Below the pieces are notes generated by a model. It did no database searches. It saw only the letters and a list, made by a program, of their open reading frames with translations, and was not told the origin of the DNA. The position numbers and the translations under genes were made by a program. A stretch of 64,000 bases of DNA from an uncultured virus (IMG/VR IMGVR_UViG_3300008117_000028). Its lineage: Duplodnaviria > Heunggongvirae > Uroviricota > Caudoviricetes. The stretch lies in IMG/VR virus record IMGVR_UViG_3300008117_000028; one strand, given 5' to 3'. Of the stretch, positions 187-39,471 are shown piece after piece. Every line of letters starts with the position of its first letter. Position 1 is the stretch's first letter.

Positions 187-215
187 AAACCAAAACCCAA
201 CGAAAGGAAAAATAA

Positions 216-707: not shown

Positions 708-920
708 ATGCGTTATCGTGTAGAAATATATGATGCTAATAAAGCTCACGATTTAACTATCTACTCAGAAGAAAACTTAAATCGTAATTCTTTAACCCGT
801 CTTGTAAAAGATAATCTAAATAGATTTCAAGGCAATATCAAAGCATATGTTTTTGATACTAATCAAAATAAAAAAATATTTGCTGCTTTCTTTCCAGAGG
901 ACATTCATAGTCTAATCTAA
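708..920 (+). CDS. hypothetical protein
   Basis: 70 aa ORF with AAAGGA RBS. Confidence 0.75.
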   Translation: MRYRVEIYDANKAHDLTIYSEENLNRNSLTRLVKDNLNRFQGNIKAYVFDTNQNKKIFAAFFPEDIHSLI

Positions 921-1081: not shown

Positions 1082-1109
1082 TAGGCAACTCAAAACGAAA
1101 GGATAAAAA

Positions 1110-2156: not shown

Positions 2157-2230
2157 GGTCCGTTAGCTCAGTTGGTTAGAGCGCTACCCTGTCACGGTAG
2201 AGGTCGTGAGTTCAAGTCTCATACGGATCG
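2157..2230 (+). tRNA. tRNA-Asp (GTC)
   Basis: Acceptor GGTCCGT/ACGGATC, D-arm AGCTCAGTTGGTTAGAGC, anticodon arm CTACC-CTGTCAC-GGTAG, T-loop GTTCAAG. Confidence 0.95.
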
Positions 2231-2297
2231 CAAAGCCCCCAGATGGTGAAGGCCGATTTTCTTCCTTACGGCAAGGGGATTTTTTTCCTGAAAATGC

Positions 2298-2326: not shown

Positions 2327-2350
2327 TGGGCCAACAACGAAAGGAATAAT

Positions 2351-3118: not shown

Positions 3119-3732
3119 CAGAAAGCTGGTTTAAAGATTCACATCTCTGCACAGAATGTGATGCTTTAATAGAGGTAACTCGTAAAGATGAATTCAGAAA
3201 CATTTGGCACTGTGGAATAGAATGTAATCTATTGTCAGTGGAAGATGCTACAATACACCCAAACAACGAAAGGAAAGAAATGGAAACAAATACGGTCCCT
3301 GAGACCTATAACCCTAATCTACTTGTGACATACAAGTCGATTACCGACGGTGAGGTAACTTACCCAACAATCAAGGTAACTAGCCTGGAATATCAATTAG
3401 ACCAAGTTAAGTACACTGAGAAGACGCTTATGCAGAATGTTAGTTTAATTAATCAAATCACATCTAACTTAACTGCAGATGGCTGGTACAACCCAAATAT
3501 AGATAAGGAAGACATTCTTCGTGACCTTTGTGAAATCCTTGGACACGAGCCAAAGCAAACAATTCGTATAACCGCTCAAATTAGTGTTGAGGCTGAATAT
3601 GAAATTCCTTTAGAGGAAGTTGAAAACTTTGATGCTAAATACTTCCTACAAGATAATCTAACTATTGATTCATACAATGGTGATTTAACTGTAGATACAT
3701 TTGATGTTGAAGATGCGGATGTGGATTGGTAA
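3115..3732 (+). CDS. hypothetical protein with N-terminal CxxC/HC region and a second in-frame start at 3280
   Basis: ATG3115 overlaps the upstream stop (ATGA); internal promoter at 3233-3254 and RBS at 3264-3276 precede ATG3280. Confidence 0.7.
   Translation: MTESWFKDSHLCTECDALIEVTRKDEFRNIWHCGIECNLLSVEDATIHPNNERKEMETNTVPETYNPNLLVTYKSITDGEVTYPTIKVTSLEYQLDQVKYTEKTLMQNVSLINQITSNLTADGWYNPNIDKEDILRDLCEILGHEPKQTIRITAQISVEAEYEIPLEEVENFDAKYFLQDNLTIDSYNGDLTVDTFDVEDADVDW
3233..3254 (+). promoter_or_regulatory. intragenic early-type promoter TGTCAGT-N9-TACAAT
   Basis: Same motif and spacing as the four intergenic copies. Confidence 0.65.
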
Positions 3733-4279: not shown

Positions 4280-4684
4280 ATGGGAGACAGAGCAAACTTT
4301 GTATTCGTAGATGGAGCAGGAGACACCATATGTCTATATGGACACTGGGCTGGATATAACATGCTAGGCAAATTAGCGGATGCTGTTATTGCTGCCCGTC
4401 CTCGTTGGAATGATGAATCATATGCAACACGTATTACTATTAGTCATCTAATCGGCGACCAATGGAATATGGAGACTGGATGGGGCCTGCAAGTAAATGC
4501 TATTGGTGACAATGAGCACAAGATTGCCGTGATTAATTGGCAAGAGCGAACATTCTCATTGCACGAACAGGACGACCATCGTAACCTAGAGAATAAAGTT
4601 TTAGGTATGAAGAATGAAGCAATCTTTACCATGGACCTAGAAGCATTCTGTGAGAAGTATGCAATGGAAAGACTACTCGTCTAA
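4280..4684 (+). CDS. hypothetical protein (MGDRAN...LYGHWAG)
   Basis: 134 aa ORF in operon context. Confidence 0.8.
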   Translation: MGDRANFVFVDGAGDTICLYGHWAGYNMLGKLADAVIAARPRWNDESYATRITISHLIGDQWNMETGWGLQVNAIGDNEHKIAVINWQERTFSLHEQDDHRNLENKVLGMKNEAIFTMDLEAFCEKYAMERLLV

Positions 4685-4698
4685 TATGTTATAATATT

Positions 4699-4827
4699 GG
4701 TAGGCCTGGGTGCCTATCTATACGAGTGGTGCAACTAATCGAGTTGCTAAGTAAAGCAGGTTTTTCCTTTCGTTGAGGTCCTAGCAGCCACTCTTCCTGA
4801 TCCCCTAGTTTTATAGCTGGGGGATTT
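4699..4827 (+). ncRNA. putative structured small RNA carrying an anti-RBS loop (UUUUUCCUUUCGUUG)
   Basis: Extended -10 TGTTATAAT at 4687-4695; stems TAGGC/GCCTA, GAGTGG/CCACTC, GCAACT/AGTTGC and AGG/CCT; 3' hairpin ATCCCCTAG/CTGGGGGAT; no sensible + strand ORF. Confidence 0.65.
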
Positions 4828-4921
4828 GCCCACAAAAAGACATGAGGGTAGCATATCTCTTTTACGGATGTCAAGTATATTTCCTGGAAATTTGATCAAG
4901 CTTTGTGTGATACACACCATA

Positions 4922-4951
4922 TAGACAAATGTCAGTGGTATGAATTATAAT
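4922..4951 (+). promoter_or_regulatory. early-type promoter TAGACA-N18-TATAAT containing TGTCAGT-N9-TATAAT
   Basis: Repeated motif; AACGAAAGGAA RBS at 4963-4973. Confidence 0.75.
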
Positions 4952-4977
4952 TAGGTCATACTAACGAAAGGAATAAA

Positions 4978-5532: not shown

Positions 5533-5806
5533 AACTGATACTCTTGACCCCCGCCTACAAAAATTAGTAGATATGGGAGAAACAGGCACAGACATCCTAC
5601 ATGGGGAATTAAAGAACCTTATGTATAAAGCTGAACAGGAATACCTGGAAGCTAAGCGTATAGAGGAAGAGAATGACTATGATGACGCAATGGAATCCAT
5701 GGAGCGTAAATATTGGGAGGGCCAATTAGACGCCTTGACAGGAATCTATACTCTGACGTATAATTTATCATTCGCTATCAACGAAAGGGCGCAAAAACGT
5801 GGATAA
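5522..5806 (+). CDS. hypothetical protein
   Basis: ORF track 5498..5806; ATG5522 has a GGAG RBS. Confidence 0.75.
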   Translation: MSYKTDTLDPRLQKLVDMGETGTDILHGELKNLMYKAEQEYLEAKRIEEENDYDDAMESMERKYWEGQLDALTGIYTLTYNLSFAINERAQKRG

Positions 5807-10073: not shown

Positions 10074-12116
10074 TTAGCCCTTCTTTACATCAAATCGGTC
10101 TAGCATCATAACCTTATCCCACGCTGAAATAAAGTCTTTAATATATTTATCTTTTGCATCATCTGAGGCATATACTTCAGCAATTGCACGAAGTTCTGAA
10201 TTAGATGCAATAATTAGATCCACTCTAGGAACCCCGTTTGCCTGATCAGCATTAATATAGGAAAGTAGATCAACTAAATAACTATTGTCTAGTTTTTCAT
10301 TACTTAGCATTCGCATTCCAGATAACAATAGAACCATTTCTACTGGTGTTAGACCTAATAGGTTAGCTTTTTCTACTAACAAAACCTCTTCTGGGGTTGG
10401 TATACCTTCCTGAACATAGTTACGGAAACCATCAAACTTTGGCTCAAGAACAGCAAATGATTCAATATCTGTTTGCTCTTGTGTAGCATCTCCACGACCA
10501 GCAATAAATGGAACCTCTACTTGATCTCCAGTAATTTTTTCAATTGCTGCACATCCTGCTAAAACAATTAAATCTGCAAGTGATGCATTAAAACTATCCT
10601 TAATAGATTCTAAGAAGCTAATAACATTTAATATTGATGGCTTATTATTAATTTCCCATGTATTTTGAGGCTGTAATCTAATACGGGCACCATTTGCGCC
10701 ACCACGCTTATCTGTTTTACGGAAAGTAGATGCAGAAGCCCAAGCGGTCTCTACAAAGTGTGACATAGGTATATCAGATGATTTAATCTTATTCTTAATA
10801 GCATCTATTTCAATATTAATATTAGATGATTGAACTGGATCCTGCCAAATTAATTCTTCTGATGGTACATCTTTACCAAGATATCTTGCAATTGGGCCCA
10901 TGTCTCTATGAGTTAACTTAAACCAAGCACGAGCAAAAACATTTGAGAAATAATCAAAATCTTCAAGGAATTTCTTTGAAATTTTTTCATATTCTGGATC
11001 GAATCGCAAAGCAAGGTCTGCTGTTGTCATTACTGGGGCATGGAATTTACCTTCAATATGAGCATCTGGAACTAAATTAGCAGCAGATTCATCTGTAGGT
11101 ATCCATTGTGTAGCTCCTGCAGGACTCTTTGTTTGTTTCCATTCATATTTAAATAGTAATTTAAGATATGAGTTATCCCATTTAGTAGGAGTTGCAGTCC
11201 ATGCACCTTCAATACCACTTGTAATTGTGTCTTCTGCATTACCTTTTCCAAATGAGTTTTTCCATCCAAGACCCATATCTTCAATTGGGGCAGCTTCTGG
11301 ATTTGGACCAACATGTGAAGGATCGCCAGCACCATGTGCTTTACCAAATGCATGTCCACCTGCAATAAGTGCAACTGTTTCCTCATCATTCATTGCCATA
11401 CGAGCAAAGGTTTCACGAATATCTTTTGCAGAAAGAACTGGATCTGGATTTCCATTAGGGCCTTCTGGGTTAACATAAATTAATCCCATTTGAACTGCAG
11501 CTAATGGATTTTCTAATTCACGATCTCCGCTATAACGATTGTCTGCAAGCCACTCTTTTTCTGATCCCCAATATGTATCGTCTGATTCCCAGACATCTTC
11601 ACGGCCACCAGCAAAACCAAATGTTTTAAATCCCATATTTTCAAGAGCAACATTTCCTGCAAGAATCATAAGGTCTGCCCACGAAATTTTCTTTCCATAT
11701 TTTTGTTTAATAGGCCATAGCAAACGACGGGCCTTATCTAAATTACCATTATCTGGCCAAGAGTTTTGTGGAGCAAATCTATGTAGACCTTCTCCAGCAC
11801 CACCACGACCATCTGAAATTCTATATGTACCTGCTGAATGCCATGCCATACGAATAAAGAATGGGCCATAGTTACCATAGTCTGCAGGCCACCATTCTTG
11901 CGAAGTAGTTAAAAGATAATCAATATCTTTTTTAATAGCATCAAGATCTAAACTTTCAAACTCTTTCGCATAATTAAAATCATCTGACATTGGGTCAGAT
12001 TTTTCTGAATGCTTTCTTAATCCTGACAAATCTAATTGATTAGGCCACCAATCTGCATTTGATGTTTTTTGATTGTTTAATGCATTACCCGTAAATGGGC
12101 ATTTTGCTTCGCTCAT
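10074..12116 (-). CDS. katG: catalase-peroxidase
   Basis: [48 protein letters not shown] and [10 protein letters not shown] motifs. Confidence 0.97.
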
Positions 12117-17626: not shown

Positions 17627-17803
17627 TTATTCTTCTGTGAATTTAATATGAAAACTACAAGGGTCTCCGCCATCTTCCCATTCTTCCATTTCTTCATCAG
17701 ATAAAGGTGGCCCCTCATGCGTATTACAAAATACTTCTGTTACCCAGTTTTTTTCACGACCATATTCATACCATGATTGAACATCTAGAAAATCTATAGC
17801 CAT
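17627..17803 (-). CDS. small acidic protein (58 aa, ...FCNTHEG...GGDPC)
   Basis: Hand-translated. Confidence 0.6.
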   Translation of the reverse strand: MAIDFLDVQSWYEYGREKNWVTEVFCNTHEGPPLSDEEMEEWEDGGDPCSFHIKFTEE

Positions 17804-18096
17804 TCTTTTATCTCTTCCATTAAAATATGTTTTGGTTTAGCTCCAATAATTTTTTTTACAGGTTTTCCGTATTGAAATAAGATTGTTGTTGGAATACTAA
17901 TAACTTCATATTCAGACGACTTTATTTTATTTTCATCAACATTTATTTTACCCACCCAAATTCCAGTATCATTAGAAACTTCATCTAATATTGGACTGAA
18001 CATTTTGCATGGTCTACACCATTCTGCCCAAAAATCAATTAAAATTATTTTATGACTATTAATTGTGTCTTCAAAATTAGAATCAGTTACTATCAC
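17794..18096 (-). CDS. trxA: thioredoxin
   Basis: DFWAEWCRPCK, KINVDEN, SIPT and GAKPK motifs. Confidence 0.92.
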   Translation of the reverse strand: MIVTDSNFEDTINSHKIILIDFWAEWCRPCKMFSPILDEVSNDTGIWVGKINVDENKIKSSEYEVISIPTTILFQYGKPVKKIIGAKPKHILMEEIKEWL

Positions 18097-21763: not shown

Positions 21764-22043
21764 ATCTTACGCCATACGACTCTAGCAATTTTTTTACTTT
21801 TGCTACATAGTCAATGACCATTTCTTTTTTAGTACCTGTAAATTGTATAAAGTTATCCTCATATAATCTTAATGCTAAAAACTCTGGATATTTAACAACA
21901 TCCATTTGTAAGTTGTTTACTGGTTTAGTTATTCCTCTTAAAGCTTTTGCCATTTCTGGTGTATAAAAAACTGGTTTGTTTGGTTCACCAGTCCATTGAT
22001 TTATTCCGTATTTAAAATGATCTTTATTTTTATCAATATACAT
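21723..22043 (-). CDS. hypothetical protein
   Basis: ORF track. Confidence 0.7.
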   Translation of the reverse strand: MYIDKNKDHFKYGINQWTGEPNKPVFYTPEMAKALRGITKPVNNLQMDVVKYPEFLALRLYEDNFIQFTGTKKEMVIDYVAKVKKLLESYGVRCELEGVPSERILR

Positions 22044-22344
22044 TTTTAACTTTTAATCTTTTCCAAACTTCATTTGTTTTATGTAAATTTTTATTTTTAT
22101 CTATAGAGCCAGAACTTAAATATACTCCACCCCAAACTCCATACTCATTATTTTGAATTCCAGATTTATAACACATTGATATTACTGGGCATGCTAAGCA
22201 GGCTTCGTCAATATTTTTTGCAATTTTTTCATCATTTTCGTATTTATCATAAAAAAGATTAGTATCCATGCCTCTACAAATAGCAAGATGCCACCAATCT
22301 AAATCTTCTTTATCTACTCCAAGATCATTTAAAATACTTGACAT
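22033..22344 (-). CDS. whiB: WhiB family Fe-S transcription factor
   Basis: W...AIC....LFY...AK...C..CPV...C.....YGVWGG. Confidence 0.9.
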   Translation of the reverse strand: MSSILNDLGVDKEDLDWWHLAICRGMDTNLFYDKYENDEKIAKNIDEACLACPVISMCYKSGIQNNEYGVWGGVYLSSGSIDKNKNLHKTNEVWKRLKVKNVY

Positions 22345-23631: not shown

Positions 23632-24216
23632 TTATTTAATTGCTTGACCACACTCTGAACATGTTTTTGCTTTTTTAGTTGTTTTTGCAACAGGTTCAGA
23701 TTTTTTAACAAGGCTTGCTCCAAATTTAGGTCTTCCAAATCCAACAATTGAAACCATTATATTCTTTTTATTTTTCTTATATGCACGAAGCTTTTTGCAA
23801 ACTTCTCCACCATTTCTTTGACTTCCTTTAGGGTCTCCAGAAGTATTTCCTTCAATACACCAAACGGTTCCATCTCCATTGTCAGTCATAACTATTCCAA
23901 CATGAGAAATTCTATCTACACCGTCTGATGGGAAATCAAAATATGCAACATCTCCTGGCTCTGGATCTGCAATGTCTCCGTCAATCCATTGACCAGCTTT
24001 TTTAAATGCTGCTGCTCCGCCTGGAGTATAAACTGTGTTAGGAACTTTTACTCCTGCTTCATTTGCACACCACATAACAAATGATCCACACCATGGTTGA
24101 AAATTAGCTTTAGTAAATGCACCATATTTTGTTTCATTGTCTTTTGGTCCTTCTACAGTACCAATTTCAGCTTTAGCAACTTCAACAAATTTTTCTGCTG
24201 TTCCTTGTGCTGACAT
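23632..24216 (-). CDS. endolysin, CHAP amidase/peptidase domain
   Basis: EIG..EGP..N.TKYG, PWCGSFV.W, HVGIV, IEGNTS and GFGRP motifs. Confidence 0.88.
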   Translation of the reverse strand: MSAQGTAEKFVEVAKAEIGTVEGPKDNETKYGAFTKANFQPWCGSFVMWCANEAGVKVPNTVYTPGGAAAFKKAGQWIDGDIADPEPGDVAYFDFPSDGVDRISHVGIVMTDNGDGTVWCIEGNTSGDPKGSQRNGGEVCKKLRAYKKNKKNIMVSIVGFGRPKFGASLVKKSEPVAKTTKKAKTCSECGQAIK

Positions 24217-24218
24217 TA

Positions 24219-24629
24219 TTAATCCTTATCCCAATTTGTATCTACAGGTTGTTCTTCTGGCATTGCTCCGTCTGGTTTTGCTAATCTACGAGCTTTTGCT
24301 TCATCAATTTCTGCTTCTAATTTTTTATCTGCTTGTGTATTTTTTGCATCCATTTCTTTGTTAGCTAATTGTGCAGACATAATATCTTTAGCACCAGATT
24401 GGCCAATTAAAAGTCCAGCTAATGTTCCTGTAATAAATGTTGCTACTGATCCTAGGACATTGAAAAACATTTTATCATTCTCAGATTGACCAGTAATTGG
24501 CTGTGTTACAAATATTAAAGCATACATAATGCCTACTGCTGTAATAAAAAGAATTGATCCTAATGTAATTCCTAAAATAAATTTTAATCTTGCGTCTAAT
24601 TCTGCTGGTGTTAGTCTTTCTCTAGCCAT
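24219..24629 (-). CDS. two-TM membrane protein, holin candidate
   Basis: Two hydrophobic helices and a charged C-terminal tail; adjacent to the endolysin. Confidence 0.6.
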   Translation of the reverse strand: MARERLTPAELDARLKFILGITLGSILFITAVGIMYALIFVTQPITGQSENDKMFFNVLGSVATFITGTLAGLLIGQSGAKDIMSAQLANKEMDAKNTQADKKLEAEIDEAKARRLAKPDGAMPEEQPVDTNWDKD

Positions 24630-24819
24630 TTGTATTTTCCTTAGTATCTGCTAAATCTTCTGGACATGCTCCGTTAGCTGTACAGATAGGTGGTTTACAT
24701 TCTGCTTTTTCCCAATTTGCTGGGTCCTGACATGGATAACGATAATGTCCATCGTATCCGCATCCGCTTATAGACAGGACTAAAAGGCTAGAAGCTAAAA
24801 ACACCTTTAATTTTTTCAT
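24622..24819 (-). CDS. small lipoprotein (lipobox ISGC) with Cys/Pro-rich mature part
   Basis: MKKLK-hydrophobic-LSISGC. Confidence 0.75.
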   Translation of the reverse strand: MKKLKVFLASSLLVLSISGCGYDGHYRYPCQDPANWEKAECKPPICTANGACPEDLADTKENTNG

Positions 24820-24851
24820 AAGTCTATTATAGCAAATATGAATTTAGTAGG

Positions 24852-25040
24852 CTATTCTTCTTCTTTTTCGGCTCTTTCTCTAATGCCTATAGTTAAAAAC
24901 CATATAGCTACAGAGGCTAATGTTACATATCCAACAACTGTTTTTGCACTACCCTCAAGAACAACCCAGGCTACAAAAAATCCTAGAAATGTAAAATTCT
25001 CACTAAGAATAGCAATTGCTCTTTTCTTTAACCAGTTCAT
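24852..25040 (-). CDS. small two-TM membrane protein
   Basis: Two hydrophobic stretches. Confidence 0.7.
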   Translation of the reverse strand: MNWLKKRAIAILSENFTFLGFFVAWVVLEGSAKTVVGYVTLASVAIWFLTIGIRERAEKEEE

Positions 25041-25042
25041 AT

Positions 25043-27445
25043 TTACCCCCTTATTCTCAAAATTGAACTACCTAGAATTACTTGTCCAACTAAAACTGCT
25101 GCTACAAGAACTTCCTTAGCCTTTTGCCTTTCTTGTGGACTCATATCTGCCCCAATATTTGCAAGCGCCTTAAATACTTCACATTGTTGTTCTTCTGTTA
25201 AACCTTCAATTGCTTCATCTGGATTGAAACATCCAGCAATTGCTCCTACTAAAGCTGCTGGGGATTCTAATGTTAATAAAGCTGATGCTACCTCTGCTGT
25301 AATAACTACAGGATTTCCATTTGCATCTTCTCTAACCTCTACTGGAATTTGTGGTGGAAGATCACGATATTCAAGTCCTGCTGCTTCAATATTTGCTGCA
25401 GCTACTGGTTCTCCGTCTGCTGCTGCAATAAGGGCATCTGCAACTATTTCTTTTTCTGCAATTGTTAAAACTCCATCTTCAGATAACGCTTCTGAAAGAT
25501 TATTAACTTCTGATGATGTAATTTCTCCGTCAGACATTAATGCATCTAATACAGCTTCTGCATCTGATGCTGTTAGATTTCCATCTGCTATTAAATCTTC
25601 TACAACTGAAACAATCTCTTCTACAGTTAATGGAGTTTCTTCTTCAGCTGGTTCTTCAGCTGGCTCTTCTATTGGTTCTTCTTCAGTTGGTTCTTCAACA
25701 GGTGGTTCTTCAACAGGTGGTTCTTCAACAGGTGGTTCTTCAACAGGTGGTTCTTCAACAGGTGGTTCTTCAACAGGTGGTTCAACTGGTGTTAGTCCAC
25801 CACTAATTAAGTTAGAACTTTGTATTGCTGGAATTGAAATAACAGTTTCGGTATATTGGCTTACTGGGCCAGACCAGTTAGCAACTCTAATTGTATATGT
25901 AGCACCTTCTGTCAAGCCAGCTAATTGAATTGATTCTGGGGCTCCGTCGGTATTTAATGTTTGTCCTTCATATGGATTTTCTGCATTTGGATCATCTGTA
26001 ATTACTTGATAAAACCAAGTATTTGCTGTATATCCTGTTGGTAATTCTGGGGCAACAGTTACTGTTGTGCCATCGACAACTGGTGTAGATAATATCGGTG
26101 CAGGAGTTGGAATATTATTATTAATAGCAGTTGTAAGTTGAGATGCTTTTGTATTCAAAGAAGTTTGTAAATTTGTTTTTGAATTTGATGCTGAATTAAT
26201 AGCATTAGTCAATGATGATGTATTAATAGAATTTATTGAAGAAGTATTAATGCTATTTTGAGAAACGACTGGGCTTAGACTTTGATTTAATTGTGTAATA
26301 ACAGCATTTGCTGCATCTACTGCTGCTTGAACAGTTGATGTATTTGGATCTACATAAGGAGTAAATGTTGTACCTTGACTTATTTGTCCAGCAAAACCAG
26401 AACCTGTATTTGTATCTTCAATTGGAATAATTGTTCCATTAGTAGTTTCTCTATAATTAAATCTAGCGCCATTTGGAATAGGTCCAGTAGCAGTCACATT
26501 TGCCATCCATGCACCATCATTTGGATTTACATCAGCATTAAATCTAATTTGAACCATTTGTGTAGATGCATCTTGTTGTGGATATGGACGAAGGTCCCAC
26601 GCAATGTCCAATGAAGATCCTGTTGTTGAATATGTAATTCCAGTTCCTGTGCTCCAAGTAGTCCAGTCCCATCCAGCAATAGAAACCGAAGGGGCGTTGG
26701 GTGTTTGATAATATACCCACCCTTCATCTACTCCAAATGTAATTGTTGCATTAGACCCAACATAAACATTATTATATAAAGTTCCACCCATTTGTAAATT
26801 AAATGGAAGATTCATGCGGATACCAGCATCATCTACGCCAGCAAGAACATTTGTGGTTGTTCCAATTGTTGCTTGCAAATTATTTACTGCTGTCTGAGCA
26901 TTATCAATTGCTATATTTGCTTGAGTAAGTTCAGTTTGTGCTGTTGCTTGTGCAGTAGAAGCTTCTGTTTTTGCAGTAGAAACCTGTAATATTTCTGTCT
27001 GTGCAGTAGTTACAGTAATACTATCTATTGCTGTTTGGGCAGTAGTTATAGTTTGTTTTGCATCTTGAACTACTTGAGAACTTTGATCTGTTGGATTTAT
27101 TGTTAAGTCTATATTATTTATTGTTGTAGTTGCAGTATCAACTGCATTTACTGCTATTTGTGCTGTAGATATACTTTGATTGACCTGAGTTACTGCGGAT
27201 TGAGCCTGTGTTAATTCTGTTTGTGCTGTTGCCACTAGTACTGTTGCAGAATCTGTAGCTGCAATAGCTTGTTGAACTTCTGTTGTTGCGGTTGCAATTG
27301 CTGTATTTACCGCTTGTTGAGCTGGGCTTATTACTACCTGTTCTTGATTAATATTTTCTGTTGCATATGCATAACTGGGACCAACAAAAAATAGCCAGCC
27401 AGTTACAAATAGGCCAGCTATAAATAGCTTTAACTTTCTCTTCAA
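25043..27445 (-). CDS. large exported, membrane-anchored protein: coiled-coil, beta domain, FN3-like domain, PPVEE repeats
   Basis: Signal peptide; A/T/Q-rich heptads; GLTEGATYTIRVA; C-terminal hydrophobic anchor; TTG27445 preceded by GGAG. Confidence 0.8.
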   Translation of the reverse strand: MKRKLKLFIAGLFVTGWLFFVGPSYAYATENINQEQVVISPAQQAVNTAIATATTEVQQAIAATDSATVLVATAQTELTQAQSAVTQVNQSISTAQIAVNAVDTATTTINNIDLTINPTDQSSQVVQDAKQTITTAQTAIDSITVTTAQTEILQVSTAKTEASTAQATAQTELTQANIAIDNAQTAVNNLQATIGTTTNVLAGVDDAGIRMNLPFNLQMGGTLYNNVYVGSNATITFGVDEGWVYYQTPNAPSVSIAGWDWTTWSTGTGITYSTTGSSLDIAWDLRPYPQQDASTQMVQIRFNADVNPNDGAWMANVTATGPIPNGARFNYRETTNGTIIPIEDTNTGSGFAGQISQGTTFTPYVDPNTSTVQAAVDAANAVITQLNQSLSPVVSQNSINTSSINSINTSSLTNAINSASNSKTNLQTSLNTKASQLTTAINNNIPTPAPILSTPVVDGTTVTVAPELPTGYTANTWFYQVITDDPNAENPYEGQTLNTDGAPESIQLAGLTEGATYTIRVANWSGPVSQYTETVISIPAIQSSNLISGGLTPVEPPVEEPPVEEPPVEEPPVEEPPVEEPPVEEPTEEEPIEEPAEEPAEEETPLTVEEIVSVVEDLIADGNLTASDAEAVLDALMSDGEITSSEVNNLSEALSEDGVLTIAEKEIVADALIAAADGEPVAAANIEAAGLEYRDLPPQIPVEVREDANGNPVVITAEVASALLTLESPAALVGAIAGCFNPDEAIEGLTEEQQCEVFKALANIGADMSPQERQKAKEVLVAAVLVGQVILGSSILRIRG
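25691..25780. repeat. 15-bp tandem repeat x6 (TTCTTCAACAGGTGG) encoding PPVEE
   Basis: Six perfect head-to-tail copies. Confidence 0.95.
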
Positions 27446-27521
27446 TTGGATCTCCAATGCAACAAAATTTTTGTTACATGGAAATTATAACATGATTTTT
27501 TATTTAATTTATCTTAGTTGT

Positions 27522-28094
27522 CTAAGAGTTTGCAACAATTCCTTTTCTTAAAGAATACATTACTGTTATTCCACATCTTGCAGATTTTGTACTAACTGAA
27601 TGATATATGCCATCTGGCAGAAAGATTACGTCTCCTTCTTCTACTTCAATTTCTGCATCTACCTGTTCGTTATCATCATTATGTTGTTTTTTAAATTGCC
27701 ATATTGATTTTCCTTTTATCTGCCAATGAAATTGATCTGCTGGGTCGTTGTGGAATGATACTTTTTTACTATTGGATATTAAATCTAAAAATGCAGCACC
27801 AGAAGCTCCATTTTTATCCAAAAGATTATTAAAACACTCTAAAACATCATTATATTGTTTATAAAAACTAGAGTCTCTTATTTGTGCATAAAATTGATTT
27901 TTTTGTGTTGCAACACCACCGTTTACTATCCAAGAGTCTGGGAAGTTTAAATCTGGTTTATTAAAGTATTCATATGATAGATGTTCAAATATATCTTCCC
28001 AAGATGGAGTATTTTTAAAAAATCCTTTTAATAAAAAATGTGTTGTATTTTTTTTAGCATCAGACAATTGTTCTTTTATCTCATTTATATTCAT
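27522..28094 (-). CDS. cupin/JmjC-like protein
   Basis: FHNDPADQFHWQIKGKSIW...EEGDVIFLP.GIYHSV. Confidence 0.75.
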   Translation of the reverse strand: MNINEIKEQLSDAKKNTTHFLLKGFFKNTPSWEDIFEHLSYEYFNKPDLNFPDSWIVNGGVATQKNQFYAQIRDSSFYKQYNDVLECFNNLLDKNGASGAAFLDLISNSKKVSFHNDPADQFHWQIKGKSIWQFKKQHNDDNEQVDAEIEVEEGDVIFLPDGIYHSVSTKSARCGITVMYSLRKGIVANS

Positions 28095-28109
28095 AAAATC
28101 CTTAATGTT

Positions 28110-28206
28110 AAAGAGCAGTTTTGAGACGTGCTCAGGTCTATCCAGATATTTAATGTCGCTGTCTCCCCCGACGAATCTGCGACTTCTCAGTGACGAGATG
28201 CAGATT
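28110..28206 (-). ncRNA. putative structured RNA (two hairpins plus 3' H-type pseudoknot)
   Basis: TATAAT at 28215-28210; AATCTGC/GCAGATT with inner TCTC/GAGA; GTCG/CGAC; AGAC/GTCT interlocked with GAGCA/TGCTC. Confidence 0.55.
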
Positions 28207-28218
28207 TCTATTATACTA

Positions 28219-28626
28219 TTATTTTATTTTAATAGTCTTTGGCTTCTTTTCTTCTGGGATAACTCTGTCTACGCTGATTCGCAGCATACCGTTTTCAAAA
28301 TCAGCACCTACAACTTCCATATATTCGCCAAGCGCAAATGATCTTGTGAATTTACGTGTTGCAATACCCTTATGTACAAATTGAGTTTCTGTTTCTTCTT
28401 TGTTTCCTTTTACAATAAGGGTTGAGTTGTCTACTGTTACTTCAATATCTTTTTTATCAAATCCAGCAACAGCAATTTCAACTTGATAAGAATCCTCATC
28501 TAGTTTAATTACATTGTATGGTGGATACGATTGGTTTTCTGAATATACATGGTTTAATCTATTTAATGTGTGATTAAAACCAATAAAAAAAGGGTCATTA
28601 AAAATGGCCCATGGATCTTTCATCAT
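28219..28626 (-). CDS. small heat shock protein (Hsp20/IbpA-like)
   Basis: YPPYNV, EIAVAGF, HKGIATRKFTRSF.L and NGMLRI...PEEKKP motifs; start ATG28626 after AGGAG. Confidence 0.93.
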   Translation of the reverse strand: MMKDPWAIFNDPFFIGFNHTLNRLNHVYSENQSYPPYNVIKLDEDSYQVEIAVAGFDKKDIEVTVDNSTLIVKGNKEETETQFVHKGIATRKFTRSFALGEYMEVVGADFENGMLRISVDRVIPEEKKPKTIKIK

Positions 28627-28692
28627 ATTTTTTCTCCTTTTAAGCAAGTTATATTAGTACCCCCAAATGGCAGGTACTAATATATTATATCA

Positions 28693-28875
28693 TTATTTTG
28701 GATTGTCTGTTTTATAAAATCCAGAACCTTTAAATTGAACTCCTACTGAGCTATAAGATCTAGTCATACCGTATCCACATGAGTTGCATGGAGGAATTAT
28801 TTCTTGATCATCAAATTTTCTATTTATTTCAATAGAAGTGTCGCATGTTATGCATGAGTATTCATATATTGGCAT
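28693..28875 (-). CDS. FmdB-family zinc-ribbon protein
   Basis: MPIYEYSC..C...C..CG...FKGSGFYKTD. Confidence 0.85.
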   Translation of the reverse strand: MPIYEYSCITCDTSIEINRKFDDQEIIPPCNSCGYGMTRSYSSVGVQFKGSGFYKTDNPK

Positions 28876-29282
28876 TACTTTCCACTCTTTTTTCTCTTCT
28901 CAGCCAAGACTGCAAAATCTTTAACCTTAGTTTCTCCCATATATCCCCAGGCATATCCATCTTCAATCATTTGTTCATTAACTGATTGTTTTGATCCATC
29001 TAAATATAGCCATCCAAGAATTCTTCCATATTTTTCTGAAGAATCTGGTTTTTCTGTTTTAATTACAATTTCTTTTGCATCTTTAATTTTATATTTTAAA
29101 TATTCTTTTGACTCTAAACCAAGAGCTTTTTCAAATTTATCTGAAGTCCTTGATTCTGGTGTATCTATGCCAGCCATCCTAACTCTTTGAGAAAAAGAAA
29201 CATTAAACCCAAGATCTATATCTACATCTAAAGTATCGCCGTCTACAACACCAGTTATTTTTTTAACTCTATATTCGTACAT
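28875..29282 (-). CDS. thermonuclease (SNase-like) family protein
   Basis: VVDGDT.DVDIDLGF, RVRMAGIDTPESRT and KYGRILG motifs. Confidence 0.88.
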   Translation of the reverse strand: MYEYRVKKITGVVDGDTLDVDIDLGFNVSFSQRVRMAGIDTPESRTSDKFEKALGLESKEYLKYKIKDAKEIVIKTEKPDSSEKYGRILGWLYLDGSKQSVNEQMIEDGYAWGYMGETKVKDFAVLAEKRKKSGK

Positions 29283-29464
29283 TAAAATATTTTCTTTTTC
29301 TTATCTTCAGACATTTTTTGCTCATTTGCAGTTGCTGCGTACAAAGCTCTTTGATGTGCTAATGCTCTAGATTTGCTTGGATGACATCCTTTTAGTTCAC
29401 CTTTATCATTTACTACTGCAAAACCCTTACAGCCTGCAGCACCTTGTCTAATATTATATGGCAT
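29282..29464 (-). CDS. small hypothetical phage protein
   Basis: MPY...GCH.....A..Q.RALYA; GGAGG RBS. Confidence 0.7.
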   Translation of the reverse strand: MPYNIRQGAAGCKGFAVVNDKGELKGCHPSKSRALAHQRALYAATANEQKMSEDKKKKIF

Positions 29465-29490
29465 ATTGACCTCCTATATGTATTATAGCA

Positions 29491-29787
29491 TTATTCATCA
29501 ATTGGCCTAATACCTTTTTCTTCTATTATTTTATATGCTTCTGGTGTTAAACTTATAGTTGCCTGTAAATTTTCATCATATTCAACTGAAATTAAGTCCT
29601 TATTAAATAAATCTATTAAAGTTTTATCAACATAATTTGTATGCGAATCCCACAATTCTGGAGCAACTTCCTCTGCATATTCTGTTACTTTAAAAATTAA
29701 CTCCCCATCAGGATCTATTCCAGCTATTTCAATTGCTCCTATTTCTAAATAATATTGAAATAAATCGTCTTCCCCTGGCTCTTCCAT
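29491..29787 (-). CDS. acidic hypothetical protein
   Basis: ORF track; AAGGAG RBS. Confidence 0.7.
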   Translation of the reverse strand: MEEPGEDDLFQYYLEIGAIEIAGIDPDGELIFKVTEYAEEVAPELWDSHTNYVDKTLIDLFNKDLISVEYDENLQATISLTPEAYKIIEEKGIRPIDE

Positions 29788-29799
29788 TTTGCTCCTTTG

Positions 29800-29873
29800 T
29801 GCAACAGGTAGGACTTGAACCTACGATTGCCGAATTATGAGTTCGGGGCTTTAACCAACTAAGCTACTGTTGC
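29800..29873 (-). tRNA. tRNA with CAT anticodon (elongator Met or Ile2)
   Basis: Acceptor GCAACAG/CTGTTGC, anticodon arm CCGAA-CTCATAA-TTCGG, GGTTCAAGTCC; lacks initiator features. Confidence 0.92.
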
Positions 29874-29911
29874 TCATAACAATATAATTATATATATAGT
29901 ATATTAATTAG

Positions 29912-30502
29912 TCAATAGCCTAATTCAAAAATTTTACCATTATCATTTTTATTTACACTTAATATTATATTTACCATATCATTTCTTATTTCTTCTGTTA
30001 TGGTTGACGGAGATATTGAAATCATTGCTTGATTTTCTTTTACATGCAAAGATAAAGATTTAACTAAAGCTTGATTGCCAGCTTTTACTGATGAATAATG
30101 TGCGTCTAAAATTGCTTTATTTGCAGCAACTGAGGATATGAAGATAATATGTCCATTTTCATTTAATGATTTTATGCAATTTATAATTAATAAGTTATAA
30201 TTAAATAAATATGAGTCATAAAACAGTTTTAATTCTTTTATATTAATTTTTGTTATATTATCTGATATGGAATTTCCAGATAAAAAAATTATTTTACTAT
30301 AGTAATTTACTGGTAGGTCTCTAATAAAATTTAAAACAGATTCATAATCTTCAAAATCTAAATACTTCCAGTTATATTCTCCATAAATTTTATTTTTTTG
30401 CCTGTAAGTTATTAAATCTATTATAAAATTTTCTTTTTCTAATGATTTTATTATTAATTTAGAAGATCTGGCTGTGCCACCTATGATTAAAACTTTATTC
30501 AT
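29912..30502 (-). CDS. short-chain dehydrogenase/reductase-like protein (degenerate)
   Basis: KVLIIGGT, IIFISSVA and YxxxK (YSSVK). Confidence 0.7.
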   Translation of the reverse strand: MNKVLIIGGTARSSKLIIKSLEKENFIIDLITYRQKNKIYGEYNWKYLDFEDYESVLNFIRDLPVNYYSKIIFLSGNSISDNITKINIKELKLFYDSYLFNYNLLIINCIKSLNENGHIIFISSVAANKAILDAHYSSVKAGNQALVKSLSLHVKENQAMISISPSTITEEIRNDMVNIILSVNKNDNGKIFELGY

Positions 30503-31983
30503 TAAGTTAGTATATCACTTTTATAAATAGATTTCCATAAATTAATATCAGCAATATCATTTAATAAAGGCTGCCCTTTAATATTTAAACTAGTATTTAA
30601 TAATAATGGCACTCCTGTTTCTTGATAAAATTTATTTAATACTCTCCAAAGACCTCTATGCTGATTTCTATTTACTGTTTGTACTCTAGAAGTTCCATCT
30701 ACATGAACCACAGACGGAACTATCTCTGGTTTTTTACATTTTACTGCATATTGCATGTAAGGTGATGTAAATTCCATTTCAAACCATTCTGATGCACATT
30801 CTTCCATTATAACTGGCGCAAATGGTCTAAACATTTCTCTTTGTTTAATTAAATTAACTTTATTTTTTATATCTGGGTCTCTTGGATCGGCTAATATACT
30901 TCTGTTTCCTAATGCTCTAGGTCCATACTCTGCACGTCCGTTTGCAACTGCAACAATTTTATTTTCTTTTAACTCAGAAATTATTTTATCTACTGGATAT
31001 TCTCCTTTAATATTATATCCAAGATAAGGATTGTTCCAATTTAAATGTTTTCCATATAATGCAGCAGCTGCGCCTAAAGATGATCCAGCATCTCCTGGGT
31101 TAGGCATTATCCAAATATCTTTAAATATATCCCATAAAAAAGTATTAGCAGAACAGTTTAAAGCACATCCGCCCATAAAAACTAGTTTATTTTTACCAGT
31201 TATACCTTTTGCATACTTCATAAATTCTAAAAGTCTTAATGTATAAACCTTTTGGACTGCTGCTGCTAAATCAAAATTTCTTTGATCAAACCAAGACTTA
31301 GAGTTATTCTCCCATCCAGCCATACATGGAATACTTCCCCAATTAAAATCATATATTCCTTTATGAAAATTATATTTTTGTTTTGTAATTGATGGAAAAT
31401 AAGAATTTACTTGATCAAAATATCTATCTGGGTTTCCATAGCCAGCCATACCCATAAAAATATATTCCTCTTCATTTGGTTTTAATCCTACTAGTTGTGT
31501 AAAAGCAGAATAGAATAATCCAAAGCTAAATGGATAATTTTGTTTATGTTTTAATTTAACTTTGTCTCCTTCTCCCGTCCATATTGTAGAAGTATTCCAT
31601 TCTCCTATAGAATCCAAAACAACTATAACTGCATCATCGAATTTACTTGTATAATATCCAGCACATGCATGCGAATAATGATGTTTGAAATATTTAACTG
31701 GTACGGTTTTATTAAATATATTTTTAATTTGATATTTTGGAACCCAATTACCATTTCCACCCTTTAATAATAATCTAGAAGCTTTTAATAATGGATTTTC
31801 ATAATATGCTATCTGATCTGGAAAACCGTATTGCAGGGCATCACTAATTAAATCATTATTGATATACCAATCATTTTTTTTCTTGCTATATCTTTCAGCA
31901 TGACCAGCAAATAAGATATTCCCATCTTCAATTAATGATAAAGATGCATCATGCGAAGTTTCATTAATTCCAAGTATTATCAA
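30502..31983 (-). CDS. carbamoyltransferase (NodU/CmcH family)
   Basis: HDAS, ERYSK.KND, HH.SHA, GGCALNC, GDAGSSLGAA, GPRALGNRS, FRPFAP, HVDGTSRVQTV and LNTSLN motifs. Confidence 0.95.
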   Translation of the reverse strand: MIILGINETSHDASLSLIEDGNILFAGHAERYSKKKNDWYINNDLISDALQYGFPDQIAYYENPLLKASRLLLKGGNGNWVPKYQIKNIFNKTVPVKYFKHHYSHACAGYYTSKFDDAVIVVLDSIGEWNTSTIWTGEGDKVKLKHKQNYPFSFGLFYSAFTQLVGLKPNEEEYIFMGMAGYGNPDRYFDQVNSYFPSITKQKYNFHKGIYDFNWGSIPCMAGWENNSKSWFDQRNFDLAAAVQKVYTLRLLEFMKYAKGITGKNKLVFMGGCALNCSANTFLWDIFKDIWIMPNPGDAGSSLGAAAALYGKHLNWNNPYLGYNIKGEYPVDKIISELKENKIVAVANGRAEYGPRALGNRSILADPRDPDIKNKVNLIKQREMFRPFAPVIMEECASEWFEMEFTSPYMQYAVKCKKPEIVPSVVHVDGTSRVQTVNRNQHRGLWRVLNKFYQETGVPLLLNTSLNIKGQPLLNDIADINLWKSIYKSDILT

Positions 31984-32063
31984 TATATATACCTGTCTCT
32001 TTTTTTATTTTTTTTAAATTTTAATTTAAATCTATGTAAATAATATTTAAACTTTAAAATCAT
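31980..32063 (-). CDS. 27-aa Lys-rich peptide MILKFKYYLHRFKLKFKKNKKRDRYIY
   Basis: Hand-translated; its TGA overlaps the TTG start of the carbamoyltransferase. Confidence 0.55.
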   Translation of the reverse strand: MILKFKYYLHRFKLKFKKNKKRDRYIY

Positions 32064-33126
32064 ATCCATACCTATCGTTTAATTGTTTTGCAAAAATATC
32101 TCTTATATGTATATGTCTATGAAAACCTAAATGTGCACTTTCTTTTTCATTTATATAGTAATCTAACGCTACATTGAAATAAATATCTTTAATAAATTCT
32201 CTATGACAACTGTCTATTATGTATATAGGATAATCAGTTAAATTTTTTCTTACCCAATTATTATTTTCTAGATCAATAAAATTTGTAAAATTATTATCAT
32301 TAGAAAGTTTTTTTAAAAGTTCATTTGAATGTAAGTCCCAAGTGCCATATAATAAATTTATATTAGTTTTTTTACAATATGTTTCTAAAATATTTATACT
32401 CTGTGCAGAATACATATGAGCCATTTGTATAGGTATAACTTCTTCTGCCAAAAGTGGTCTTTTAAAATATTTTATTTCATTTTGATTATCAAATATTATA
32501 GAAGAATTTAAGTCATCAATTGATTTATTTGAATAATTTATATTAGTTTTATCATCCATGTTAGTATAGTAAATATCTGTATTTGATTCATAGTGTGTTG
32601 ATATATAATTTTCAAATTTATGGGAGGTAAAAAACATGGGAGAATTAAAAATTTTAATTCTTTCAAAATTTGGCATTAAAAATAAAATATTTTTTGGATT
32701 ATTGTATTTTTTTATGTAAGTAAAAATTTTTTCAACCTGACTATTAATGCTCTCACCAGCCTGTGCTATTGAATTATATGTGTACTTACTATCCTTTAAT
32801 AATAATTCATACCAAATTTTATCTGTTCTTAATCCATCCCCCATAGTATTTGAACATCCAGCTATTAAAAAATCAATATTTTCTTTAAATTCTGGTGATC
32901 TAAATCCATCTTTATTTAAAATAAAATCTATTTCAGGATCTATTTTTTTAAATAAAGAAAATCTATTTTCAATAACTCCATAATCTTTATCAGTATAATT
33001 ATAAAATTCATTATAATATATTTTATCTACAATGCTTGGATAATATTTAAAATATTTATTGTCTAATTTGTTAATTATACAATCATAAAACATTTCTGTA
33101 TAAGTGTTATCCATTATTTTTTCCAA
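32047..33126 (-). CDS. SGNH-hydrolase-like phage protein
   Basis: LNKDGFRS, AGCSNTMGDG and C-terminal HLG...H.H motifs. Confidence 0.6.
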   Translation of the reverse strand: MEKIMDNTYTEMFYDCIINKLDNKYFKYYPSIVDKIYYNEFYNYTDKDYGVIENRFSLFKKIDPEIDFILNKDGFRSPEFKENIDFLIAGCSNTMGDGLRTDKIWYELLLKDSKYTYNSIAQAGESINSQVEKIFTYIKKYNNPKNILFLMPNFERIKIFNSPMFFTSHKFENYISTHYESNTDIYYTNMDDKTNINYSNKSIDDLNSSIIFDNQNEIKYFKRPLLAEEVIPIQMAHMYSAQSINILETYCKKTNINLLYGTWDLHSNELLKKLSNDNNFTNFIDLENNNWVRKNLTDYPIYIIDSCHREFIKDIYFNVALDYYINEKESAHLGFHRHIHIRDIFAKQLNDRYGYDFKV

Positions 33127-33838
33127 TCAAATATTTATCAAATATAAAATCACAATAAAATTTATGAAAAGATGTACCTGGATGTAAATTATCTCTTGCC
33201 CATAATGAATTTAAATCATTATTTGACAATCTATCATACTCAAAAACTTTTTTCATCATATAATCTTTATCATAATCATAAAATGTTTCAAATCTATTTA
33301 ATATATCATGATTATTAATTAATTCATACTTAGAGTTTGCTAATTCTAACCAGGAAGGACCCTTAGTAATTCTTTTTGGTTGTTTTAAATTTATTGATTT
33401 AATCCAAGAAAATGTATATAATTTTATATTATTAGATCTACAATATTGTTCTAAATACAAATAAATTCTATAAATAAAAGAATTTCTATGGTCTTCCTTA
33501 AACAATCCATATCTTTCTTCTCTATTAAATTCAGTTGTTACAAAAAAAACTACATCTGGATTAGAATATAGATAGCAATACTTAAAAAATTGATCTATAG
33601 AATCACTAATTGCTGAGCCAGATGTTCCTAAATTAAAATAACCACTAGTTTTTTCTATTTCCGATATTTTTTTATATACTCTATAACACCATGTTTCTTC
33701 TTTTTCTAAACCGTCTCCTGCAGCAAATGAGTCTCCTATAAACAATATATGTTTACCATCATGATTTTTTTTAAAATCATCACATCTATAATCTATATCA
33801 TTAAATTTATCAGCTAATCTATAATCTAAATGCATCAT
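33107..33838 (-). CDS. SGNH-hydrolase-like phage protein
   Basis: FIGDSFAAGDG, NLG.SG and ARD.LHPG...H motifs. Confidence 0.65.
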   Translation of the reverse strand: MMHLDYRLADKFNDIDYRCDDFKKNHDGKHILFIGDSFAAGDGLEKEETWCYRVYKKISEIEKTSGYFNLGTSGSAISDSIDQFFKYCYLYSNPDVVFFVTTEFNREERYGLFKEDHRNSFIYRIYLYLEQYCRSNNIKLYTFSWIKSINLKQPKRITKGPSWLELANSKYELINNHDILNRFETFYDYDKDYMMKKVFEYDRLSNNDLNSLWARDNLHPGTSFHKFYCDFIFDKYLIGKNNG

Positions 33839-33927
33839 TAGTATAAAAAATTCCTTTTTTTAAAAGCTTTTTTATTTTTTTTAATCCATAGAATAAATTT
33901 AATTTTATTAATAATTTTTTTAATCAT
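33838..33927 (-). CDS. 29-aa Lys-rich peptide MIKKIINKIKFILWIKKNKKAFKKRNFLY
   Basis: Hand-translated; ATGA and TAATG couplings on either side. Confidence 0.55.
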   Translation of the reverse strand: MIKKIINKIKFILWIKKNKKAFKKRNFLY

Positions 33928-34262
33928 ATATTTATTTTATCTCCAACTATCCCAGGTATTTTTATACATATAATTTTGCAATTAGTTATAAATTCTGGGT
34001 CTGCTATTTCGAATGGTTCTAAAATAAATATGTCTCCAGCATTTAATTCTTTATTATGAATAAACATAGTTCCTTCTATTAAAAAATTAATTTCTTTAAT
34101 TTTAGAATGGTAATGATGACCATATTGCTCTCCTGCAATATGCTCTTTATATCCAACCTCAAACTCTTTTGTTTTATAAACTGATGGGTCGAAATCTCCT
34201 ATAAACCAACCCATTTTCATATTTTTAATATTATCTATTATCATAATCCATACTCTGTCCAA
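33924..34262 (-). CDS. cupin-fold protein
   Basis: GWFIGDF.PS, HHYH...EIN, GDIF.LEP.E. Confidence 0.7.
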   Translation of the reverse strand: MDRVWIMIIDNIKNMKMGWFIGDFDPSVYKTKEFEVGYKEHIAGEQYGHHYHSKIKEINFLIEGTMFIHNKELNAGDIFILEPFEIADPEFITNCKIICIKIPGIVGDKINI

Positions 34263-36323: not shown

Positions 36324-36325
36324 AA

Positions 36326-39442: not shown

Positions 39443-39471
39443 ATTAATTTATTATACCATATTTTAGTTGA

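Follow-up and report, generated by a model that had tools for sequence, protein, structure and literature searches.

A conserved non-coding RNA of large actinobacterial phages with a loop complementary to a shared early-gene leader: a candidate trans-acting small RNA

Organisation of the small-RNA gene

We analysed a 64,000-nucleotide (nt) stretch of DNA from an uncultured virus (IMG/VR record IMGVR_UViG_3300008117_000028), referred to as the window, in which a candidate small RNA (sRNA) gene carries a loop that is complementary to the leader shared by the early genes of the phage. The window corresponds, in reverse complement, to part of a linear virus record of 113,072 bp, for which CheckV estimated 100% completeness. 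On the plus strand at 4687-4829, a TGnTATAAT promoter is followed in series by a 5' hairpin, a three-way-junction RNA and a terminator hairpin; a gene for a protein of 134 amino acids (aa) precedes them. The individual parts are as follows:

4280..4684, plus strand: upstream gene, 134 aa, PHROG 31860; the small RNA directly follows in all relatives found through this gene
4687..4695, plus strand: extended -10 promoter TGTTATAAT, read from the sequence; probable start site near 4701-4703
4699..4718, plus strand: 5' hairpin GGUAGGC-CUGGGU-GCCUAUC, the predicted 5' end of the RNA, from the minimum-energy fold
4724..4793, plus strand: three-way-junction core, matched by covariance model R1 with 70.1 bits at 4720-4797
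4724-4730/4787-4793, plus strand: stem P1 of the core
4731-4736/4742-4747, plus strand: stem P2 of the core
4748-4755, plus strand: junction UAAGUAAA of the core
4756-4760/4780-4785, plus strand: stem P3 of the core, with a bulged A at 4783
4761..4779, plus strand: P3 loop; anti-leader stretch UUUUUCCUUUCGUUGA at 4761-4776 and invariant core CUUUCGUU at 4767-4774
4799..4829, plus strand: terminator-like hairpin GAUCCCCUAGUU-UUAU-AGCUGGGGGAUU, then a short U run, from the fold

An initial annotation of this DNA had proposed an sRNA that covers the ribosome-binding site (RBS) of the early genes. The sequence elements on which it was based, namely TGTTATAAT at 4687-4695, the TAGGC/GCCTA hairpin, the closing stem GAGTGG (4724-4729)/CCACTC (4788-4793), the GCAACT/AGTTGC and AGG/CCT stems and TTTTTCCTTTCGTTGA at 4761-4776, are all present at these positions, and the terminal hairpin was located at about 4799-4826. 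This last hairpin had been called terminator-like, which agrees with its form and with the situation in most relatives (see below), but in the window copy the stem is followed by only three U's, and a simple terminator scan did not call it.

Folding of the plus strand (4699-4830) yielded -50.1 kcal/mol with a z-score of -3.66, a value that was equalled in none of 200 shuffles; the fold of the minus strand of the same stretch is unremarkable (z = -1.12). The presumed pairing seed had been expected to be unpaired. This is largely the case for CUUUCGUU (mean unpaired probability of 0.71), with UCGUU as an open loop in the minimum-energy fold, but CCUU (4766-4769) pairs weakly with GAGG (4775-4778). 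No Rfam family matched at the site of the small RNA, either at gathering score or at E <= 10, leaving aside a chance hit to CRISPR-DR17 (E = 1.5), and a comparison of the locus with 50,697 phage records returned no megablast or blastn match. The best explanation of the sequence is a small non-coding RNA gene of about 125-130 nt at 4701-4829 on the plus strand, which is presumably transcribed from its own promoter.

Other identities were tried and rejected. A transfer-messenger RNA (tmRNA) was dismissed, as ARAGORN found only tRNA-Asp and tRNA-Met, Rfam found nothing and R1 does not match the annotated tmRNA of the Streptomyces phage Wofford. A likeness to helix 45 and the tail of 16S rRNA (GGUGCGGCU, AAGUCG; 16S end as generally known) is accidental: the letters in question are the strands of P2, which covary freely between clades. 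Junction UAAGUAAA and loop UUUACUUA are complementary in one clade and might there form a pseudoknot or another hairpin, but a G-to-A change in the junction is uncompensated.

Conservation and covariation among relatives

Using the 134-aa protein (4280-4684), we retrieved 76 IMG/VR loci with 62-100% identity, one of which (L076) has no DNA downstream of the gene. The covariance model R1 was built from 55 distinct core sequences and found exactly one copy in each of the 75 loci with downstream DNA, always on the plus strand and directly past the stop codon of the gene (61-89 bits). In the alignment of the 55 distinct rows, 97.7% of 909 stem cells are paired compared to 80.9% in column shuffles, and none of 500 shuffles reached the observed value. 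Sliding the 3' partners by 1-3 columns as a control reduced pairing to 22-47%. Double-sided changes were found in 9 of the 17 pairs (144 cells). The alignment was fitted to the supplied structure, which favours that structure; given the effect size and the slid controls, covariation by chance is unlikely.

The conserved architecture consists of P1 (nnnnGGU/GCCnnnn), the variable-length hairpin P2 and P3 (GCAGN/NCU-A-GC), connected by a nearly invariant junction, YUAA(G/A/C)UAA(N)G. G-U pairs are frequent (U11-G110 in all 55 sequences, G12-U62 in 22 and G15-U59 in 27). If the other strand were the RNA, each of them would be an A-C mismatch, so the plus strand is the RNA strand. No open reading frame (ORF) is conserved here: open frames over the loop have a median length of 10 codons on the plus and 30 codons on the minus strand, with wide scatter. 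In the window, no start codon follows the minus-strand copy of the motif; use of the site as RBS of a conserved minus-strand gene was a possibility that the initial annotation had itself raised as an objection.

Promoters and terminators were surveyed in 59 distinct loci, comprising the window and 58 relatives, after L003, which is identical to the window, had been dropped. Of these, 39 have TGnTAnA(A/C)T no more than 66 nt ahead of P1 and 43 have some -10 element, and a G+C-rich hairpin with a T-rich tail is present <=75 nt downstream in 51. The 5' hairpin is kept wherever the promoter sits 26-34 nt upstream of P1 and is missing in clades with the -10 at 7-15 nt. Several clades have a -10 that incorporates the stop codon of the preceding gene (..GGTA[TAA]T.., ..GTA[TGA]TATAAT), an arrangement that appears hard to explain without selection on the promoter itself. 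By these counts of predicted elements the RNA has the independent transcription unit of a trans-encoded sRNA gene, and its conserved structure together with its non-coding character is in agreement with such a gene.

Homologs of the gene that precedes the RNA occur only in actinophage records. This, together with a WhiB-family protein (22036-22344, minus strand) and a DnaE-like polymerase that is 56% identical to that of Streptomyces phages (Stanwilliamsviridae), places the virus among the actinobacterial phages. The initial label as an actinophage is thus corroborated, despite a genomic G+C content of about 32% (37-39% in the early arm). The RNA constitutes a new, uncatalogued family of large actinobacterial phages that is absent from Rfam. 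A scan of species genomes (host and prophage) with the scaffold pattern gave 97 matches, about the number expected by chance, and none of the 80 fetched ones was real according to the covariance model. In this context, the pattern matched by chance a 41-nt stretch near many contig ends of one Saprospiraceae metagenome-assembled genome (L238, L242, L243, L253 and about 20 more loci), which probably represents a high-copy repeat or mobile element without relation to the RNA.

A common leader in 14 early transcription units

The motif AACGAAAGG occurs seven times in the window compared to 0.24 expected copies, and none of 100 shuffles reached seven. Six copies are on the plus strand (199, 1094, 2336, 3265, 4963 and 5780), just ahead of start codons, while the sole minus-strand copy (4766-4774) lies within the candidate RNA and is also the only one on this strand in the whole 113-kb record. 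All copies in this record, 14 on the gene strand and a single one opposite, cluster in about 10 kb at one end; a reversed-pattern control gave none. Eight of these copies are found in the 5.7 kb preceding the start of the window. The six motif copies named in the initial annotation are confirmed, and the total is 14 units instead of six.

Each of the 14 gene-strand copies is positioned 5-10 nt ahead of an ATG or GTG, and 12 of them lie 10-14 nt past a promoter that combines a TAnAAT -10 element with a conserved TGTC(A/G)G(TGG) box in its spacer. What had been described as a shared RBS is a promoter-proximal leader of about 20-25 nt, copied with every early transcription unit. The cassettes within the window, with their predicted duplexes with the small RNA, are:

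199..207, plus strand: leader/RBS cassette AACGAAAGG; start codon 216; -25.5 kcal/mol
1094..1102, plus strand: leader/RBS cassette of a DUF932 gene; start 1110; -17.5 kcal/mol
2336..2344, plus strand: leader/RBS cassette; start 2351; -20.6 kcal/mol
3265..3273, plus strand: leader/RBS cassette; start 3280; -21.5 kcal/mol
4922-4951, plus strand: promoter of the 4963 cassette, TAGACA-N18-TATAAT with a TGTCAGTGG box in the spacer, read from the sequence
4963..4971, plus strand: leader/RBS cassette; start 4978; -16.1 kcal/mol
5780..5788, plus strand: leader/RBS cassette; GTG start 5799; canonical TTGACA-N18-TATAAT promoter; -20.2 kcal/mol

The TGTC(A/G)GTGG box is located at about -30 to -22, upstream of TAnAAT, in the 40 nt ahead of 12 of the 14 cassettes (for example at 4928-4936, and within 150-190 and 2290-2330), and may mark a distinct promoter class. 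In position, it resembles the activator boxes found in middle promoters of phages. The gene next after the RNA has, immediately ahead of its promoter, a perfect or near-perfect palindrome, GGTGTG-N3-CACACC (4906-4920; GGTGTGAAACACACC in relatives), which looks like an operator.

Complementarity between loop and leader

The stretch TTTTTCCTTTCGTTGA at 4761-4776 in the P3 loop is the reverse complement of the AACGAAAGG leader. Its core CUUUCGUU is invariant in 55 of 55 distinct core sequences. We also performed a loop-agnostic scan with a pattern that was restricted to the junction and the 3' strand of P3 and left the loop free. It returned 80 readable loci, of which 77 are the true RNA, and all 77 carry CTTTCGTT; the other three are chance matches in coding-like DNA without P1 or P2. 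The P3 stems around this constant element differ in length and covary, with loops of 16-24 nt.

For the eight core bases the median predicted unpaired probability is 0.70 (range 0.35-0.91). Predicted duplexes of 4760-4779, a 20-nt segment made up of the loop and the closing G, with the 14 leaders range from -14.5 to -25.5 kcal/mol, while the start regions of 77 minus-strand genes, used for comparison, gave a median of -9.2 and a minimum of -15.8 kcal/mol. According to these predictions, the RNA exposes an accessible seed whose complementarity to its targets exceeds chance. In a flank swap test, own pairs matched over 1.99 nt compared to 1.75 +/- 0.07 nt for swapped pairs, a value that none of 2000 swaps reached, with relatedness uncontrolled. 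Four runs labelled RNA-Seq, in which 21-36% of the sampled words were found, were discarded: they are contig sets with records of up to 204 kb, probably DNA, and silent on expression, ends and strand.

A model for translational shut-off of the early genes

The RNA gene, with its structure, strand, conservation, complementarity and specificity, can be read directly from the DNA; that it is transcribed, pairs in vivo, represses rather than activates and does so at a particular time, we infer. We favour the reading as an anti-leader sRNA that acts in trans to switch off translation of the early genes, and we judge its chances to be about even.

According to this model, an ancestral structured early RNA would have gained an enlarged P3 loop in the freshwater clade, matching the private leader of the early regulon. 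Host RNA polymerase would transcribe the gene from the -35-independent TGnTATAAT promoter, which would let the RNA accumulate through infection. The transcript would present a stabilising hairpin first, the three-way junction next and the intrinsic terminator last. With UUCCUUUCGUU presented in the apical loop of P3, the open UCGUU could nucleate on the AACGA that precedes the Shine-Dalgarno (SD) sequence in the 14 leaders, and the duplex could then spread across GAAAGGA(AAA) to 11-16 bp in total and cover the ribosome-binding site. The accumulating RNA would out-compete the 3' tail of 16S rRNA, which matches only about GAAAGGA, and translation, and probably also stability, of all 14 early units would be lowered together.

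The same pairing might also act positively, with the RNA shielding early mRNAs against 5'-dependent RNases at their 5' ends, or reserving these messages. All figures on complementarity and accessibility apply identically to such a function, the pairing site begins a few nt from the predicted 5' end of each mRNA, and a host-type promoter makes it likely that the RNA is produced from the start of infection. The duplex, however, covers the SD sequence itself, which in known cases blocks 30S binding, and we consider a protective role improbable.

Observations that weigh against the shut-off model

Several observations speak against a shut-off of the early genes by the small RNA. Within the clade of the window, the CCUU of the seed is able to pair with GAGG. 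Furthermore, the proposed sRNA is a conserved structured RNA with a leader-complementary loop, but a covariation of loop and leader, as envisaged in the initial annotation, is not convincing. There is no clean compensatory change between loop and leader, as both cores are invariant among the relatives. The loop ACUUUCGUUGG of clade C is not mirrored by the leaders, which stay AACGAAAGG or AACGAAAGAGG in this clade, so that pairing is limited to about 9-10 bp. The effect in the flank swap test (0.24 nt, relatedness uncontrolled) is present on one side only and absent on the other. About 16 of the 59 loci, including L021/L036, L026-28, L049/L055, L073/L074, L042 and L054, have no recognisable -10 element, and the terminator is missing in eight.

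These promoter-less loci lead to the idea that the RNA is a cis-acting 3' untranslated end of the upstream operon, which pairs with the leader of the next gene in read-through transcripts, or stabilises or terminates the message. In clades such as L021/L036, L026-28, L049/L055 and L073/L074 the core starts 9-16 nt past the stop codon with no recognisable -10; six of these also lack the terminator hairpin, and the leader cassette is usually found 150-250 nt downstream. At most loci, however, the RNA has its own extended -10 and terminator. The downstream gene varies among relatives and has its own promoter, and thirteen other identical leaders are kilobases away. A cis-acting element is quite unlikely in our view.

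Further points against the shut-off model come from more distant relatives. In the metagenome-assembled phage DSL-LC01 (OQ999401.1) the upstream protein is 42% identical; the authors of the phage predicted it to be an actinophage (PMC10611076). Its genome carries ACGAAAGG 22 times on one strand and not at all on the other, with 21 copies within about 20 kb (24015-43353) and one at 89081. Neither covariance model matched in its 129 kb. The initial annotation had named relatives that keep the motif and lack the RNA as a refutation, and this one genome is of that kind: the 22 leaders are kept without the RNA. The leader thus predates the RNA and is independent of it.

In the Streptomyces phage Wofford, R1 gave a weak match (25 bits) in both terminal repeats, just past a canonical TTGACA-N17-TACACT promoter, and the broad model R2 reached 52 bits. 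The scaffold homolog found with R1 is located as follows:

795-867, minus strand, Wofford NC_048722.1: scaffold homolog; second copy at 122588-122660

A BLAST search with the Wofford stretch returned 83 records of cultured Streptomyces phages, mostly with two copies each in direct terminal repeats. These copies lie 750-1050 nt from the genome end, mostly in unannotated DNA, with a canonical TTGACA-N17-TAnnnT promoter ahead. R1 matched all 11 fetched Streptomyces loci (15.6-27.4 bits). The RNAs of Streptomyces and freshwater phages share P1, P2 (CCCCUAUCAGUC...GGCRAGGGG) and the UUAAWUAG junction, with covariation; the joint alignment is paired to 97.2%, which none of 500 shuffles reached. By sequence, the scaffold is older than the anti-leader loop. 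The Streptomyces homologs do not have this loop at all: their P3 is short with the loop (A)AGGUCGG, the complement of which shows no gene-strand enrichment (0 to 5 copies in each genome, as in controls), and an invariant CCUUUCAAU is located immediately 3' of P1 rather than in the loop. As the scaffold is kept with another loop in these phages, it must have a role beyond presenting an anti-leader seed. The early leaders of these Streptomyces phages are heterogeneous and only some are AACGAAAGG-like. We also considered a pairing of the Streptomyces P3 loop with the 3' tail (GGAAGGUC is complementary to GACCUUUC), which was rejected because the Wofford variant AUGG is uncompensated. Independently of the terminal repeats, Wofford genes 190-191 (L139:3001-3697) comprise a homolog of the 134-aa gene followed by the annotated tmRNA, at the place where the freshwater clade has the small RNA.

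The main job of the RNA might thus reside in the three-way-junction scaffold, which could bind or sequester a host or phage protein or dock to the ribosome, with CCUUUC as a mimic or decoy of the 16S tail and the leader match as a secondary, clade-specific property. P1, P2 and the U-A-A-N-U-A junction are common to the terminal-repeat RNAs of the Streptomyces phages (11/11 R1 matches), the junction hardly varies in its nucleotides, as is seen in RNAs that bind proteins or adopt tertiary folds, the Streptomyces versions hold CCUUUCAAU 3' of P1 and not in the loop, and DSL-LC01 has the leader without the RNA. What argues for the anti-leader function instead is that the invariant stretch runs to CGUU, past the identity with the 16S tail (16S 3' end as generally known), and that it matches the phage leader exactly. 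Moreover, no protein partner was identified, and neither Foldseek nor VIA-align found a recognisable RNA-binding fold in the adjacent 134-aa protein. This protein has no Pfam match; its structural model is confident (predicted local distance difference test of 86.8), Foldseek gave nothing at E <= 0.001 and the best VIA-align Z was 3.6. On the separate question whether it is an RNA chaperone, the comparison of the modelled structure appears uninformative and was not counted against the idea. Overall, we regard a primary scaffold function as rather unlikely.

A convergent promoter-like block past the terminator

A second conserved block (4829-4900) directly follows the terminator and contains a putative promoter:

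4843..4874, minus strand: conserved promoter-like block, TTGACA (4874 to 4869), 13 nt, TGCTACCCT (4853 to 4845); putative function

TTGACn-N16-19-TAnnnT is present on the minus strand in 47 of 58 loci, in 37 with the TG extension; the block is also evident in an alignment made by eye, and the hexamer spacing in this block (TTGACn-N13-TGnTACCCT) is 17-18 nt. CGTAA and CCCTCA within the block are conserved beyond the needs of a promoter. If it is a promoter, it would face the terminator and give a transcript from about 4838, antisense to the small RNA and with a perfect copy of the leader. The block could also be a plus-strand or DNA-level signal instead.

On this basis, the functional product might be made from the minus strand, or the two strands might form a sense/antisense pair: TTGACn-N13-TGnTACCCT would drive a leftward CAACGAAAGGAAAAA transcript that works as a decoy or sponge, or forms double-stranded RNA. 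The presence of the block in 47 of 58 loci with its spacing kept at 17-18 nt is in line with this possibility. Against it, many G-U pairs of the stems would be A-C on this strand and the fold has a z-score of only -1.12; the weak -10 TACCCT escaped the promoter scan, and there is no conserved minus-strand ORF. We consider it very improbable.

More tentatively, and with a probability below that of the anti-leader sRNA as such, these observations could be combined into a wider picture of a phage RNA family that displays an anti-SD sequence. One scaffold, reaching from soil Streptomyces phages to low-GC freshwater phages, would carry the 16S-tail-like CCUUUC, placed in the P3 loop in some phages and in the 3' tail in others. 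In the freshwater clade this element would have been extended to match the private leader, making the RNA an early-to-middle translational timer for 14 units, with the antisense -35-dependent promoter restraining the RNA at the start of infection.

Comparison with known systems

For the timed shut-off of early genes in phages, proteins and promoter switching are the main known means. In T4, the protein RegA occupies the initiation regions of many early mRNAs and so turns down their translation; the factor proposed here is an RNA instead, and its targets share one exact leader. In the Bacillus phage SPO1, the host-takeover module forms a terminal block whose short early units have one strong promoter each and similar, strong RBSs, and we know of no antisense RNA against this shared site. 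In Actinobacteria sRNA mechanisms are, to our knowledge, poorly known, and no Hfq-type chaperone has been established.

The nearest described case in function is the c4 RNA of P1/P7, which exposes loop sequences that pair around the RBS of the ant mRNA and block its translation, as described in a review (PMC12197685). In both cases a phage-encoded RNA, trans-acting in c4 and proposed to be so here, has a loop complementary to the RBS region of phage mRNA. The resemblance is functional only: c4 acts on one operon (ant) in the immunity of a temperate phage, whereas the present RNA has 14 units as proposed targets, belongs to a large actinophage and forms a three-way junction. Membership in the C4 family is not indicated, as no Rfam covariance model matched at the site even at E <= 10.

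Multi-target RNAs without a known chaperone, whose pyrimidine-rich loops face purine-rich ribosome-binding regions, offer another comparison, for example 6C/B11 and the RsaE-type anti-SD sRNAs of Firmicutes with their C-rich loops. These are host-encoded and direct a C-run seed against a generic G-rich SD sequence. The seed UUCCUUUCGUU, in contrast, includes the non-SD extension AACG, which makes it specific to the phage's own leader. 6C/B11, an sRNA with C-rich loops (PMC6486639), is the closest counterpart within Actinobacteria. The phage RNA does not belong to it: Rfam gave no match, its U-rich loop contains no more than 2-3 C's in a row, and it folds into a three-way junction.

We found no description of an actinophage sRNA or of a regulon-wide anti-leader sRNA in the open-access literature, which agrees with the corresponding statement in the initial annotation; the text of the review (PMC12197685) contains none of the terms 'Streptomyces', 'actinophage' or 'early gene'. 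From the sequence, the interpretation as a new variant of a known regulatory principle appears plausible and specific. If it is true, a single small RNA would silence a whole early regulon via a leader that is copied with every promoter, which would amount to an RNA-only solution. The family has more than 100 metagenomic members and its scaffold is present in 83 cultured Streptomyces phages, which makes it testable at the bench, for example in phages of the BE cluster, and the natural loop swap between lineages is a ready specificity experiment. Being absent from Rfam, the RNA would merit an entry as a new family.

Further features of the genome

Two tRNA genes were detected. The gene for tRNA-Asp(GUC) (2157-2231, plus strand) is located in the early arm between two cassette genes, and that for tRNA-Met(CAU) (29799-29873, minus strand) in the minus-strand block. 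Auxiliary-looking genes, all on the minus strand, encode a haem peroxidase-family protein of 680 aa (10077-12116), a thioredoxin (17797-18096), an Hsp20 protein (28222-28647) and a carbamoyltransferase (30505-31983). Several glycosyltransferases are encoded at 35346-41708.

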